Assembly: GCF_017995515.1 (NCBI RefSeq) | Contig: NZ_JAGOIT010000002.1 | Span: 2,542 to 66,541 of the forward strand | Direction: 5' to 3' | Origin: Propionivibrio sp. | GTDB taxonomy: Bacteria; Pseudomonadota; Gammaproteobacteria; Burkholderiales; Rhodocyclaceae | Length of the DNA: 64,000 nucleotides | Shown here: piece after piece, positions 16,615 through 57,742 of the stretch | How positions within the stretch are numbered: the stretch's first letter is position 1 | Layout: the number at the start of each line of letters is the position of its first letter | Program-made: the position numbers and the translations under genes | The notes under the pieces: model-generated | Told to the model about the DNA's origin: nothing | What the model saw: the letters and a program-made list of their open reading frames with translations, nothing else | The model's database searches: none

Positions 16615-17715
16615 GTGTTCAGCGCCGCCGATCACGAGTTCATGGCGCAGGCGCTACGCCTTGCCGAGCGCGGGCTGTATACCACCACCCCGAATCCGCG
16701 CGTCGGCTGCGTCATCGTCAAAGACGGCAAGGTTGTCGGCGAAGGTTGGCATCAAAAAGCGGGCGAAGCACACGCCGAGGTCCACGCGCTGCGCGCCGCC
16801 GGTGAGGGCGCACGGGGCGCGACAGTCTACGTGACGCTCGAACCCTGTAGCCACCATGGCCGCACGCCGCCCTGTGCCGATGCGTTGGTCGCTGCCGGCG
16901 TGGCGCGCGTCGTCGCAGCCATGCAAGACCCCAATCCCCAGGTTGCCGGACGAGGAATCACGCGCCTGCAGGCGGCGGGTGTCGTCGCCGAATGCGGTCT
17001 GCTTGAGGCCGAAGCGCGCGAACTCAACATCGGTTTCGTCGCGCGCATGACGCGCGGACGGCCGTGGCTGCGCCTGAAGGTGGCGGCCAGCCTGGACGGA
17101 AAGACGGCGCTCGAGAACGGCGTCAGCCAATGGATCACCGGGCCGGCGGCGCGCCAGGACGGCCATCGCTGGCGTGCCCGCGCTTGCGCCATCCTGAGCG
17201 GTATCGGAACGGTGCGTGACGATGATCCTCGACTCAATGTGCGCGGCGTTCAGACCTCTCGCCAACCGGTCAAGGTCATCGTCGACAGCCGGCTTGCCTT
17301 GAGCCTCAATGCGAAGTTGCTGGATGCTGGCGAAGTGATTGTCGCGACGGCCTGCGAGGATCGGGCAAGAATGGACGCGCTGCGCGGCGTCGGCGCGGAT
17401 ATCCTGCATTTGCCGGACGCCAATGGAAAGGTCGATCTATCGGCGTTGCTGCAGGAACTCGGACGGCGCGGCGTCAACGAATTGCACGTCGAAGGGGGCG
17501 GGCGACTCAACGGAACCCTGGTTGATGCCGGTTTGATCGACGAACTGCTGCTTTACCTGGCGCCCTGCCTGATCGGCGATGTTGCTCGCGGGATGTTCAG
17601 CCTGCCGGCGCTGGCGTCGCTCGAAGAAAAGAAATGTTTGGCCATTCGCGACGCGCGCATGGTCGGCAGCGACCTGCGCATTCTGGCGCGTCTGAATAGC
17701 GTTATGGGCGGATAA
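16615..17715 (+). CDS. ribD: Bifunctional riboflavin deaminase/reductase RibD
   Basis: PNPRVGCVIV, HAEVHAL, TLEPCSHHGRTPPC, SLDGKTA, LHVEGG; GTG start. Confidence 0.97.
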   Translation: MFSAADHEFMAQALRLAERGLYTTTPNPRVGCVIVKDGKVVGEGWHQKAGEAHAEVHALRAAGEGARGATVYVTLEPCSHHGRTPPCADALVAAGVARVVAAMQDPNPQVAGRGITRLQAAGVVAECGLLEAEARELNIGFVARMTRGRPWLRLKVAASLDGKTALENGVSQWITGPAARQDGHRWRARACAILSGIGTVRDDDPRLNVRGVQTSRQPVKVIVDSRLALSLNAKLLDAGEVIVATACEDRARMDALRGVGADILHLPDANGKVDLSALLQELGRRGVNELHVEGGGRLNGTLVDAGLIDELLLYLAPCLIGDVARGMFSLPALASLEEKKCLAIRDARMVGSDLRILARLNSVMGG

Positions 17716-17745
17716 AGAAAAAGCCAGCGCAAGGCTGGCTTCTTC
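17714..17745. terminator. Bidirectional intrinsic terminator between ribD and tRNA-Ile
   Basis: Stem AAGCCAGC/GCTGGCTT with a 5-nt loop; A-tract on the left gives a U-tract for the minus-strand tRNA transcript. Confidence 0.75.
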
Positions 17746-17749
17746 GAAT

Positions 17750-18032
17750 TGGTGGGCCTCCCGTGAGTCGAACACGGCACCAACGGATTCTGGTTTGTGT
17801 GGCTTTCGCCACTCCCCGGACTATGCCTTCACCATCGCTTTCGCCTTAGGTGGGTGCCGTCTAGTCTCTACACCTTCAACAGCACTTTCGTGCTGAAGCT
17901 TGGCTCGGCGTTGCCATCCGCATCGCTGCGCTTAGGTTTCGCCGAATTTGACACCATCCCATACGCAGTTTCCAAACGTATGGCACAAATTTTATGAGTC
18001 CGCTGCTCTAACCAAGCATGAGCTAGAGGCCC
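17750..18032 (-). tRNA. ileX: tRNA-Ile2 (anticodon CAT), split by a group I intron: exon 1 18032-17994, exon 2 17789-17750
   Basis: The spliced sequence forms a full cloverleaf: acceptor GGGCCTC/GAGGCCC+ACCA, D stem GCTC/GAGC, anticodon stem GCGGA/TCCGT with loop CTCATAA, T arm CCGTG-TTCGACT-CACGG. TAGAAT -10 at 18042-18047. Ile2 rather than Met is inferred from the position after rpoD and from the Azoarcus precedent. Confidence 0.93.
17790..17993 (-). ncRNA. Group I self-splicing intron (IC3, Azoarcus tRNA-Ile type), 204 nt, no ORF
   Basis: Inserted directly 3' of the anticodon CAU. IGS GUG pairs with CAU (U.G at the 5' splice site) and the intron ends in G. P3 GGUGUC/GGCACC, P4 UCGGCG/CGCCGA, P7 GACUA/UAGUC, P9 GUGGC-GAAA-GCCAC, L2 GAAA. 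Confidence 0.95.
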
Positions 18033-18105
18033 GAAACCGCGATTCTACCGGGACTTCGCCGGCTTTGACGAAGAATTCGGACGGTATCGGTAAATCGTTC
18101 TGCCA

Positions 18106-20055
<1,950 letters not shown>

Positions 20056-20100
20056 GACCAAGTCCCGGTTAGCGTTAAACTGGAAAAACCCTAGATTTTA

Positions 20101-21852
20101 TCACAACTTACGTGCGAGATCAGCGTCCGCATTCGAGCGCAGGAGCTGGCGGTATTGCTCCTTTTCCTCGCTGGAAAGGCCGGGAAGCCCAAGCTTGATG
20201 ACTTTCTCCTGCAGTTGCTCGAAGGCGCGCTTGTTTTCCGCTTCACGTAGTCTCTGAATGATTCCTTCAAACTCGTCGTCAATGCCCTCTTCGGCAAACG
20301 GGTGCAGCATTAGTTCGGCGGCAGATTCGTTCAACACGCTATCTTGCTCACCACCCCGCAATTGCTCTAGCAGGACTGTGTAGGTTGGCGGCGATTCTTC
20401 GTAGTCCTGTATCGTTTCGCACAATCGCTTTACCGCAAACGCCTCTGCGTGATTGTCTGGCAACGCTGCATGCGGCACTCGCTTCGCCAGTTCGGGTTTC
20501 TGCAGCAAGAGTCTAAGCAACGGCCTGAACAAGGAGGGAGCCTTGCGTGGTGCGACTGCCGGTGCTGCTCGTGCCACCGGGCGCAGATCGCACAGCCGTT
20601 CCACTTCGCTTTGCGAGAACCCGCTAGCTTCCGCAAGCCTCTTGACCAACTGTAGTCGCAATAAGGGCGTTTGCAAGCGCGCCAGAAGTGGCTTGGCTTC
20701 GGCAACGAGCTTGGCGCGACCTTCTGCGCTGGTCATGTCGCAGCGCGTTGACAGCTCTCTCAGAAGGAATTCGGAAAGCGGTAGTGCTTGCGCGACCATA
20801 CGCTCAAACGCATCCTTGCCCTGGTTGCGCACGAAACTGTCCGGGTCGTCCTTTTCAGGCAGGAAAACAAAACCGATGCTCTTTTGTTCGGGCAAGGCTT
20901 CAAGGCTGTTTTCGAGCGCGCGCCATGCCGCCTTCTTGCCGGCTGTGTCGCCATCGAAGCAATAGACGATACGGTCGACCTGGCGCAGAAGCTTCTTGAC
21001 GTGCGTCCCGGTGGTTGCCGTTCCGAGGGTGGCGACGGCGTTGCCGATGCCGTGCTGGGCGAGCGCGACGACGTCCATGTAGCCTTCGACGACGACCGCT
21101 GTGTTTGTGTCGCGCAGGGCGCTTCGTGCTTGCGGCAAGCCGAAAAGTTCGCGCCCCTTCTCGAATAGGGGGGTCTCCGGCGAATTCAGATACTTGGGTT
21201 CGCCCGCACCAAGTACGCGGCCGCCAAATGCGATAGTTTCTCCCTTCTGGTTCTTGATCGGGAACATGATCCGGTCGCGAAAACGATCGTACAGGCGGCC
21301 TGTTTCGTGTTTGATCACCATGCCTGTCTGTTGCAAGTCCGTGCGGGTGTAGTCCTCGAATGCTGTGCCAAGGTTTTGTGAGCCGTTGGGTGCATAACCG
21401 ATTCCGAACTTCTGCGCAATCGCGCCGCTGACGCCGCGATTTCTTAGGTAGTCAATGGCCTTTTCGGATCGCTTCAGCTGTTCGTAGTAGTACCTTGCCG
21501 CGATGTCCATCACTTCCGTCAGGCTGGACAGCTTCGGGCCACTCGGGGTGTTGCGCCCATCCTGCTCGGGGAGTTGCATGCCAGTGCGTCCGGCAAGATC
21601 CTTTACGGCATCGATGAAGCCAAGGCCCGAGTATTCCATGAGAAATCCGATGGCCGTCCCGTGCGCTCCGCAACCGAAGCAGTGGTAGAACTGCTTTGTC
21701 GGGCTGACCGTGAAGGACGGCGACTTCTCGCTGTGAAACGGGCAGCACGCTGCGAAATTGGCGCCAGCTTTCTTTAGGGGGACGAATCCGTCGATCAGGT
21801 CGACCAAGTCGGTCCGGTGCAGCAATTCCTGAATGAAAGACTCGGGAATCAT
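20101..21852 (-). CDS. dnaG: DNA primase
   Basis: CHC2 zinc finger CPFHSEKSPSF...YHCFGCG, DRFRDRIMFPI, KYLNSPETPLF, TOPRIM VEGYMDV and FDGD. Confidence 0.98.
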   Translation of the reverse strand: MIPESFIQELLHRTDLVDLIDGFVPLKKAGANFAACCPFHSEKSPSFTVSPTKQFYHCFGCGAHGTAIGFLMEYSGLGFIDAVKDLAGRTGMQLPEQDGRNTPSGPKLSSLTEVMDIAARYYYEQLKRSEKAIDYLRNRGVSGAIAQKFGIGYAPNGSQNLGTAFEDYTRTDLQQTGMVIKHETGRLYDRFRDRIMFPIKNQKGETIAFGGRVLGAGEPKYLNSPETPLFEKGRELFGLPQARSALRDTNTAVVVEGYMDVVALAQHGIGNAVATLGTATTGTHVKKLLRQVDRIVYCFDGDTAGKKAAWRALENSLEALPEQKSIGFVFLPEKDDPDSFVRNQGKDAFERMVAQALPLSEFLLRELSTRCDMTSAEGRAKLVAEAKPLLARLQTPLLRLQLVKRLAEASGFSQSEVERLCDLRPVARAAPAVAPRKAPSLFRPLLRLLLQKPELAKRVPHAALPDNHAEAFAVKRLCETIQDYEESPPTYTVLLEQLRGGEQDSVLNESAAELMLHPFAEEGIDDEFEGIIQRLREAENKRAFEQLQEKVIKLGLPGLSSEEKEQYRQLLRSNADADLARKL

Positions 21853-57261: not shown

Positions 57262-57666
57262 GGGAAGTCGGCCAGGCAACCGCTGGGGGAGAGGCGAAAG
57301 TCTCGAACCGGGAGGAAAGTCCGGGCTTCACAGAGCAAGATGCCGGCTAACGGCCGGGCACCGCAAGGTGACGGAAAGTGCAACAGAGAATAGACCGCCT
57401 AAGTCCGGGGTAGCCCGGGCCGGCAAGGGTGAAACGGCGCCCCGGCTATAGCCGGGGCGGTCGGGCGCAAGCCCGGCCGAGGTAAGAGCTCACCGCGGAC
57501 GTGGTAACACGGACGGCACGGCAAACCCCATCTGAAGCAAGACCAAATAGGGAAGCGCATGGCGTGGCTCGCGTTGCTTCCGGGTAGGTTGCTTGAGCGC
57601 ACTGGCAACAGTGCGCCTAGAGGAATGGTTGCCCACGACAGAACCCGGCTTATCGGCCGACTTCCC
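57262..57666 (+). ncRNA. rnpB: RNase P RNA (bacterial type A)
   Basis: GAGGAAAGTCCGGGC (57312-57326) and AGAACCCGGCTTAT (57640-57653) conserved regions; P1 GGGAAGTCGGCC/GGCCGACTTCCC; TATAAT at 57250-57255. Confidence 0.97.
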
Positions 57667-57742
57667 ACTGCTCTCTGCCGCCGCGTTTGACAGAGCGTCT
57701 GGTGGCGTCAATACTGGTTTTCACCCTGCGCAGCGCACCTTC

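Follow-up and report, generated by a model that had tools for sequence, protein, structure and literature searches.

A tRNA-Ile(CAU) gene of Propionivibrio sp. interrupted by a probable self-splicing group I intron of the Azoarcus type

Results

A split tRNA gene downstream of rpoD

In a 64-kb stretch of Propionivibrio sp. DNA (64,000 nucleotides [nt] of contig NZ_JAGOIT010000002.1, referred to here as the window), a tRNA-Ile(CAU) gene is encoded on the minus strand at 17750-18032 and is split by an intron. It follows dnaG and rpoD, lying 73 nt downstream of the latter, and all three genes converge on ribD (Table 1). An earlier note on this DNA had described two tRNA halves separated exactly 3' of the anticodon by 204 nt. 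ARAGORN in its intron mode confirmed exactly these borders (ctcat-intron-aatcc), in agreement with a layout of 39, 204, and 40 nt, and joining of the exons in silico yielded a standard cloverleaf of 79 nt with the anticodon CAT. The insert very probably is a self-splicing group I intron orthologous to the pre-tRNA-Ile ribozyme of Azoarcus BH72. Only two short open reading frames (ORFs) overlap the region (17437-17775, minus strand, and 17948-18193, plus strand), and no homing endonuclease ORF was found in the intron, whose 204 nt are fully taken up by ribozyme helices; both points had been anticipated. The window holds a single copy of the intron.

The exons are well supported as those of a tRNA-Ile2 (CAU, lysidine type) because of their TilS identity pairs, their matches to E. 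coli tRNA-Ile, and the position of the gene, which agrees with the identity proposed before. In tRNA-Ile2, the anticodon CAU is converted by TilS to lysidine-AU, which reads AUA, a rare codon for isoleucine. The acceptor stem of the window tRNA contains G3:C70, C4:G69, and C5:G68, and pairs 4:69 and 5:68 are C:G in all 76 aligned sequences (see below). TilS identity pairs, which separate tRNA-Ile2 from tRNA-Met, are G3:C70 and C4:G69 in Burkholderia cenocepacia and C4:G69 and C5:G68 in E. coli (PMC11947777). Searched against 5,426 E. coli genomes, the spliced sequence gave best full-length matches that were all annotated as tRNA-Ile; the median number of places in each genome was 2, as would fit ileX plus ileY. 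The gene order is rpsU-dnaG-rpoD-mug-ileX in E. coli K-12 and dnaG-rpoD-tRNA in the window, whose tRNA gene sits at the ileX position. Both ileX and ileY share with the window gene the CAU anticodon, C4:G69, C5:G68, and an anticodon stem of the G27.U43 type, and ileX also its place downstream of dnaG-rpoD; unlike the window gene, they are intronless, and they show 74.7% identity to the spliced window tRNA. "Met," the label given by ARAGORN, is its name for any CAT anticodon.

TABLE 1 Features at and around the split tRNA gene (window coordinates; intron position n = window 17994-n)
Feature	Position	Strand	Remarks
dnaG	20101-21852	-	
rpoD	18106-20061	-	
Sigma-70-like promoter candidate	18042..18071	-	-35 TCGTCA, 18-nt spacer, -10 TAGAAT
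5' exon, tRNA-Ile2(CAU)	18032..17994	-	39 nt, GGGCCTCTAGCTCATGCTTGGTTAGAGCAGCGGACTCAT, ending ...GACTCAT
Content of 5' exon	17994..18032	-	Acceptor 5' strand, D arm, anticodon-stem 5' strand, C-U-C-A-U
Group I intron, Azoarcus type, IC3 by homology	17993..17790	-	204 nt, AAAATTTGTGCC...CAAACCAG
Internal guide sequence GUG	17984..17986 (intron 8-10)	-	Pairs with anticodon CAU, U.G at 5' splice site
P2 hairpin, GAAA L2	17959..17983 (intron 11-35)	-	6/7 pairs change on both sides
P3 5' strand	17950..17955 (intron 39-44)	-	Pairs with 17853-17858 (136-141), pseudoknotted core
P4 (49-54/84-89) enclosing P5/P5a (58-80)	17905..17945	-	J5 11-nt receptor CCUAAG...GAUGG, G63.G76
P6/P6a, GAAA L6a	17872..17904 (intron 90-122)	-	All 5 P6a pairs covary
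P7 5' strand GACUA	17862..17866 (intron 128-132)	-	Pairs with UAGUC 17819-17823 (171-175)
P8 hairpin, GAAA L8	17831..17851 (intron 143-163)	-	J8 11-nt receptor CCUAAG...GAUGG, G149.G158
Intron G177	17817	-	Just 5' of P9.0; A in other 75 sequences
P9.0 (178-202, 179-201), P9 hairpin (182-195), 3' tail, omega-G204 at 17790	17790..17816	-	
3' exon, tRNA-Ile2(CAU)	17789..17750	-	40 nt, AATCCGTTGGTGCCGTGTTCGACTCACGGGAGGCCCACCA, AATCCG...CCCACCA, CCA encoded
Content of 3' exon	17750..17789	-	A37 A38, anticodon-stem 3' strand, variable loop, T arm, acceptor 3' strand, CCA
Intrinsic-terminator-like hairpin and U run	17717..17745	-	-19.3 kcal/mol, z = -4.7
ribD	16615-17715	+	
RNase P RNA, bacterial class A	57264-57668	+	276.7 bits, full-length match

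Orthologues and comparative structure of the intron

Genomes, one per species, were scanned for a 17-nt motif spanning J6/7, P7, and P3' of the intron (P, J, and L denote paired, joining, and loop segments). The scan returned at least 120 stretches (L001 to L120), at least 78 of which are tRNA(CAU) genes with an intron, mostly of ~190 to 255 nt; Azoarcus itself is not among the listed loci. All full-length copies listed have an Ile2-type acceptor stem and the CTCAT...AATCC junction around the intron. The listed hosts belong to Rhodocyclaceae, Oxalobacteraceae, Methylophilaceae, Polynucleobacter and other Burkholderiaceae, Chitinibacter, Chitiniphilus, a Neisseriaceae isolate, Thiobacillaceae, and Nitrosomonadales. 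An rpoD-adjacent locus is common to Rhodocyclaceae, Oxalobacteraceae, Methylophilaceae, Polynucleobacter, Chitinibacter and Chitiniphilus (Neisseriales at NCBI), and Thiobacillaceae. Reviews place such introns in cyanobacteria and in "few" or "some" alpha- and betaproteobacteria (PMC4033280, PMC11408192); the present counts suggest that the tRNA-Ile(CAU) intron is common in Betaproteobacteria and not a rarity. The window intron is one more member of this known, common family, whose intron occupies this locus in no fewer than 75 further distinct sequences.

A structure alignment (A1) of 76 distinct sequences, the window and 75 orthologues, was built with the tRNA arms and P1 to P9 drawn explicitly. 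Across these sequences, 95.8% of cells were in standard pairs, versus 34 to 41% when partners were slid by 1 to 3 columns. Thirty-five pairs showed changes on both sides, and none of 500 shuffles matched any observed measure. Covariation was found in P2, P5a, P6a, P8, and P9; P1, P3, and P7 were invariant. Thus, the P1 pairs C-G, A-U, and U.G formed by CAU with GUG are unchanged in 76/76 sequences, and P3 (6 pairs) and P7 (5 pairs) are paired in 100%. Within P7, the pair G128-C175 is presumably the one that binds guanosine, judged by homology to the Azoarcus structure. L2 was scored as GAAA in 70/76 sequences, the other 6 being readable as GAAA one base out of register, and L9 is GAAA in 76/76; four of the five P9 pairs covary. 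The terminal omega-G (pre-tRNA position 243) is invariant among the aligned sequences. For P9.0, a register of 179-202 and 180-201 was dropped for 178-202 and 179-201 on the basis of five compensatory cases. A minimum-free-energy fold recovers P2, P4, P5, P6a, P8, and P9 (z = -3.0). All parts of the complete core that the earlier note had listed (guide sequence GUG, P3, P4, P7, P8, P9, and terminal G) are therefore present, and the group I core with its P3/P7 pseudoknot, P4-P6, and P8 is backed by comparative evidence.

Orthologues in Betaproteobacteria, such as those of Pseudoduganella ginsengisoli (L093), a Propionivibrio metagenome-assembled genome (MAG; L009), Chitinibacter (L020), Massilia (L034), and Polynucleobacter (L004), have the same locus after rpoD and the same architecture, are 75 to 96% identical to the window over the whole pre-tRNA, and share its covarying helices; they differ among themselves in the type of P1 extension, the lengths of P5a and P8, and copy number. 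The window pre-tRNA is 92 to 96% identical to loci whose rpoD flanks are only 74 to 84% identical. This better conservation of the pre-tRNA indicates strong purifying selection on ribozyme and tRNA alike.

Several further variants were seen among the listed loci. Peripheral insertions that leave the core untouched include ~50 extra nt in P5a (L104, 595-924) and, in several Methylophilaceae, an extended P8 stem-loop of the CAATCGTTATGATTG type (insertion loci L021, L012, L045, L006, L007, L110, and L097). L6a is GAAA in at least 56 of the 76 sequences; another 14 have AGAA, apparently a GAAA shifted by one position. L8 is GNRA in 26/76 natural sequences. In Azoarcus, non-GNRA L6 and L8 have been proposed as "negative design" against misdocking (PMC4705646); within the family, these loops of Azoarcus are the exception. 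P1/P2 of P. ginsengisoli (L093) are of the AAAATTTGTGCCATACG type, as in the window, Brachymonas, and Chitinibacter, and those of other Oxalobacteraceae (L019, L034, L041, L046, and L076) are of the ATGTAAATGTGCCTTGCG type. The intron type thus does not fully follow taxonomy, and exchange of the cassette is possible.

Additional and partial copies were also encountered. Nine loci (L003, L011, L016, L017, L052, L081, L087, L098, and L100) combine the intron with an intact tRNA-Ile 3' half and lack the 5' half, keeping upstream only ...CTCAT ahead of the splice site. In Polynucleobacter sp. AP-Kaivos-20-H2, such a partial copy (L011, 5065-5316) precedes the full gene (L033, 3039-3331), upstream of it by ~9.7 kb. 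Metabolic cargo genes separate the two copies, and genes for an AbiEii toxin and an rve transposase lie outside them. Partial Polynucleobacter copies were considered as attachment-site repeats of integrative elements; this was rejected for want of a (tyrosine) integrase in the one pair examined and for the wrong order of the copies. Multiple copies are present in Polynucleobacter sp. MWH-HuK1 (L039, L042, L102, and L107), P. sinensis (L004, L016, L067, and L084), and Burkholderiaceae ZE-4 (L035 and L080); these genomes of ~2 Mb contain two to four intron-bearing tRNA-Ile(CAU) genes or fragments with differing P5a/P8 variants.

The 17-nt motif also occurs in introns of tRNA genes that ARAGORN assigns to Arg (CCG, UCG, or ACG; L028, L089, L091, L103, and L044), Thr (CGU; L048), and Asn (GUU; L065), and in L095 and L096. 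The non-Ile hosts of the motif include Alphaproteobacteria, Chloroflexota/Anaerolineales, a Rhizobiaceae MAG, and others. Some of these isotype calls may be artifacts: L096 is adjacent to rpoD and matches the window from position 47 onward. A scan of metagenomes with a primer-derived 17-mer of the Azoarcus P2 gave 120 listed matches, all by chance, with no group I core nearby.

Comparison with Azoarcus and other tRNA introns

The BH72 precursor is composed of 39 + 205 + 40 nt (PMC13168695), and the BH72 ribozyme from guide sequence to terminal G comprises 197 nt, taken with wild-type bases at seven randomised sites (PMC8890501). The window intron likewise spans 197 nt from guide sequence to omega-G and is identical to it at 167/195 positions (85.6%), with 4 gap columns. 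Host tRNA, insertion point (between CAU and AA), exon lengths of 39 and 40 nt, and the lack of an ORF are the same, as are the strands of P3, P4, and P7 and the segments J4/5, J6/7, and J8/7. Both introns have GAAA in L2 and L9 and receptors of the 11-nt type in J5 and J8 (PMC4705646).

The earlier note had expected an Azoarcus-like core with differences in P2, P5a, and P6a, and the changes do cluster there. Nine of the changes fall in P2 and include two compensatory pairs. P5a, with a GCGA loop, is shorter by 2 nt, and P6a, in which GAAA replaces a non-GNRA loop, is longer by 2 nt; the P6a sequence that had been given (CAGCAC-GAAA-GUGCUG) is located at intron 99-114. The window intron also has one nt fewer before the guide sequence (204 versus 205 nt). 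Both of its receptors read GAUGG versus UAUGG in Azoarcus, giving G.G for G.U, and further differences are A177G, the replacement of G.U by G-C in P9, and A for G before omega-G. L8 of the window is GAAA, and its first G (intron G152, window 17842) is the equivalent of the laboratory-evolved A153G in Azoarcus. Together with U184C, A153G marked a laboratory-evolved variant with high activity at 2 and 25 mM Mg2+ (PMC8890501). Many relatives, like the window, naturally have G at this position.

Small, ORF-less group I introns in the anticodon loop are also known from tRNA-Leu(UAA) of cyanobacteria and plastids, cyanobacterial tRNA-fMet, and alphaproteobacterial tRNA-Arg (PMC4033280), and the 17-nt motif is shared with intron-bearing tRNA-Arg genes of alphaproteobacterial MAGs. 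These other bacterial tRNA introns differ from that of the window in host tRNA, guide sequence, and insertion position. Most are inserted at 37/38 (PMC4033280), in contrast to 36/37 in the window, a position fixed by the U.G pair and omega-G.

Receptor variants specific to the window lineage

In the Azoarcus ribozyme, L2 docks on the 11-nt receptor in J8 and L9 on the one in J5 (PMC4705646). Within the family, the closing pair of the receptor is G.U or the isosteric A.C in 59/76 sequences for P5 and in 67/76 for P8. Alone among the 76, the window has a G.G closing pair, which is present in each of the two receptors (G63.G76 and G149.G158). Both receptors retain CCUAAG and the AUGG part, and L2 and L9 are GAAA. 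Directly beside P9.0, G177 is likewise found only in the window, the other 75 sequences having A. Contigs from four DNA runs of four studies, dated 2019 to 2024, match the whole intron with zero differences, and RNA-derived runs hold the identical variant intron with no mismatches. Because they are identical in four independent DNA runs, the G.G pairs and A177G are real and not sequencing errors. A177G is the window's sole departure at columns conserved to at least 97%, whereas many relatives have more, and the lineage therefore shows no general degradation.

Detection by standard searches

With default settings, ARAGORN reported zero tRNAs across the whole 64-kb window, as expected from the earlier suggestion that tRNA finders may miss the gene. 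A default Rfam scan of the window left the tRNA-intron locus unreported, RNase P RNA elsewhere being its sole match. With permissive filters, the Rfam group I model RF00028 matched 17797-18005 on the minus strand over model positions 1-253 of 253, with 49.3 bits and E=1.6e-11, so that the proposed check by this model gave a full-length match. Two weak matches in this region, to Bp1_162 (E=0.44) and to TB8Cs3H1 (E=5), were set aside as being at chance level. When 18 clear orthologues were scored (L093, L020, L034, L008, L023, L085, L064, L032, L043, L055, L004, L029, L060, L036, L046, L082, L038, and L024), 9 reached the gathering score, at 50.5 to 64.5 bits. The intron family straddles the Rfam threshold, and about half its copies would stay unannotated.

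At least ~22 of the listed contigs end inside the intron, e.g., L009 and L075, which belong to the same Propionivibrio MAG, L013, L015, L018, L022, L053, and L074. Both contigs of the MAG closest to the window among the matches listed end in this way. Metagenome assemblies apparently break at the conserved intron, an effect that would conceal the gene still further.

Promoter, terminator, and surroundings

The 73-nt spacer between rpoD and the tRNA gene contains a sigma-70-like site that ends 10 nt before the tRNA 5' end and is a putative promoter by consensus match only (1 site in the scan versus 0.4 expected). On the other side, a terminator-like hairpin begins 5 nt past the CCA, between the convergent ribD and tRNA genes, and may serve both. 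It was seen by folding; a pattern-based terminator scanner listed none there. RNase P, the enzyme expected to trim the 5' leader of tRNA-Ile2, has its RNA encoded in the same window. The flanks of the locus best match a Propionivibrio MAG (81 to 84%) and a Rhodocyclaceae MAG (78%), and window DNA is present in wastewater and sludge metagenomes.

Transcripts of the locus

Contigs from metatranscriptomes and RNA-labelled wastewater libraries cover both exons and the intron. The exon joint was not found in the first four metatranscriptome runs. In a second set of four RNA-derived runs, a contig of run X30 lacks 204 nt; its joint is ambiguous by two bases, a range that covers precisely the joint of 17789 with 17994, and run X28 contains the same exon junction as a loose end. 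In DNA run X4 (window 17789/17997), the same exon sequences flank a different insert of 253 nt, so that this wastewater community also contains another intron variant.

Discussion

The most probable reading by far is that an ileX-type tRNA-Ile2 gene is interrupted between bases 36 and 37 by a self-splicing group I intron orthologous to the Azoarcus BH72 pre-tRNA-Ile ribozyme; confidence in the mechanism stems from homology to a ribozyme proven to self-splice and from the conservation pattern. Transcription of the precursor would start at its own promoter just downstream of rpoD or continue through from rpoD. In this RNA, the P3-P9 core would fold, and the GUG guide and the anticodon CAU would form P1 with the U.G pair at the splice site, as covariation supports. 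By homology to the ribozyme shown to act in vitro, an external guanosine would attack after U36, and the freed 3'-OH of U36 would attack after G204, joining ...CUCAU to AAUCC... and releasing the intron. RNase P and 3' processing would trim the tRNA ends, and TilS would act only after splicing, because the anticodon loop is absent until the exons are joined. Because it has no endonuclease gene and occupies the same rpoD-adjacent locus across many betaproteobacterial families, the intron is apparently an ancient passenger that has been passed down vertically and that selection on the tRNA has maintained in working form.

Several observations weigh against this reading. The RF00028 score of 49.3 bits is 0.7 bits short of the gathering score of 50 bits, which is why the default Rfam scan was silent on the intron; the match is far beyond chance, and the gathering score is an annotation criterion, not a biological one. 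Both 11-nt receptors carry G.G at the closing pair, and A177G alters a base that is A in 75/76 sequences. A contig of DNA run X2 carries the same joined exon sequence as the RNA-derived runs, so these communities also include intronless tRNA-Ile2 genes of identical local sequence; therefore, the RNA junction is not assignable to the window genome and is consistent with splicing, not proof of it. The run data consist of contigs assembled from mixed communities, and DNA may be present in some of the RNA-labelled libraries. Finally, 64 kb of the genome is in view, and a second, intronless tRNA-Ile2 copy may exist elsewhere. The earlier description of the intron as a natural orthologue stands; the dependence of an essential tRNA on it, which had also been proposed, is less certain in view of such a possible second copy and of the ambiguous evidence for splicing.

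The receptor changes raise the question of how well the intron splices. In a tectoRNA assay, replacing G6:U7 of the receptor by G:C carried a penalty of +4.33 kcal/mol, with similar effects for G:A or a lone G (PMC2275092), and a high-throughput study found effects of U7-G6 substitutions from near zero to >2 kcal/mol, depending on the pair (PMC10243134). It is conceivable, but in our estimate unlikely, that splicing persists while docking is weakened by the G.G pairs and A177G, so that it would be slower or would need higher Mg2+, an RNA chaperone, or a helper protein. That the window is the sole sequence of 76 with G.G, at both receptors, and has the unique A177G speaks for this, as does the stability of the variant in four DNA runs from 2019 to 2024, by which it is tolerated. 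Yet, with U7-G6 effects reaching down to almost none (PMC10243134), G.G may be benign, the remaining ribozyme is as conserved as in relatives, with one departure at the columns conserved to at least 97%, and no cofactor candidate has been identified. If docking were weakened, tRNA-Ile2 supply and AUA decoding could become condition sensitive. With a similarly low likelihood, and tentatively, the double G.G together with A177G might represent either a natural receptor variant that defies the in vitro docking data, should the intron splice well, or a coordinated retuning of both long-range contacts, e.g., in their dependence on ions or helpers.

A stronger version, in which the ribozyme is inactive, the gene is a decaying pseudogene, and AUA is decoded via another tRNA-Ile2 gene, seems highly improbable. 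Three substitutions do fall on otherwise strongly constrained positions, the splicing evidence is ambiguous, and the 64 kb in view hold no other tRNA according to ARAGORN. However, all helices are intact; P1, P3, P7, the guide sequence, omega-G, and both GAAA loops are unchanged; departures at highly conserved columns number one, fewer than in many relatives; and the exons make up a perfect tRNA in which every TilS identity pair is present. The gene retains a strong terminator as well as a promoter-like site, the pre-tRNA is far better conserved than its flanks, and the sequence is identical across studies and years. Recent gain of the intron, or of the whole tRNA-intron cassette, by lateral transfer is likewise improbable, if slightly less so. 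Among the matches listed, the closest pre-tRNAs (94 to 96%) come from different families (P. ginsengisoli, the Propionivibrio MAG, a Burkholderiaceae MAG, and Brachymonas), other Oxalobacteraceae have a different P1/P2 type, and Polynucleobacter has extra partial copies, all of which would fit such a transfer. In contrast, the intron has no homing endonuclease, is found at the same rpoD-adjacent locus across families, and is present once in the window, and high identity is expected under strong purifying selection on ribozyme and tRNA.

With self-splicing of an Azoarcus-type intron as the preferred reading, the general picture of such introns is unaltered by these findings. Work on folding, catalysis, fitness landscapes, and the origin of life uses the Azoarcus ribozyme as a major model, and 76 distinct natural sequences at one locus now provide covariation, natural variants of loops and receptors, and one double receptor change that is directly testable. 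For annotation, the point is that a tRNA gene which is probably essential escapes both default ARAGORN and Rfam at its curated threshold. Owing to this detection gap at default settings, genomes of the group can therefore seem to lack a decoder of AUA.

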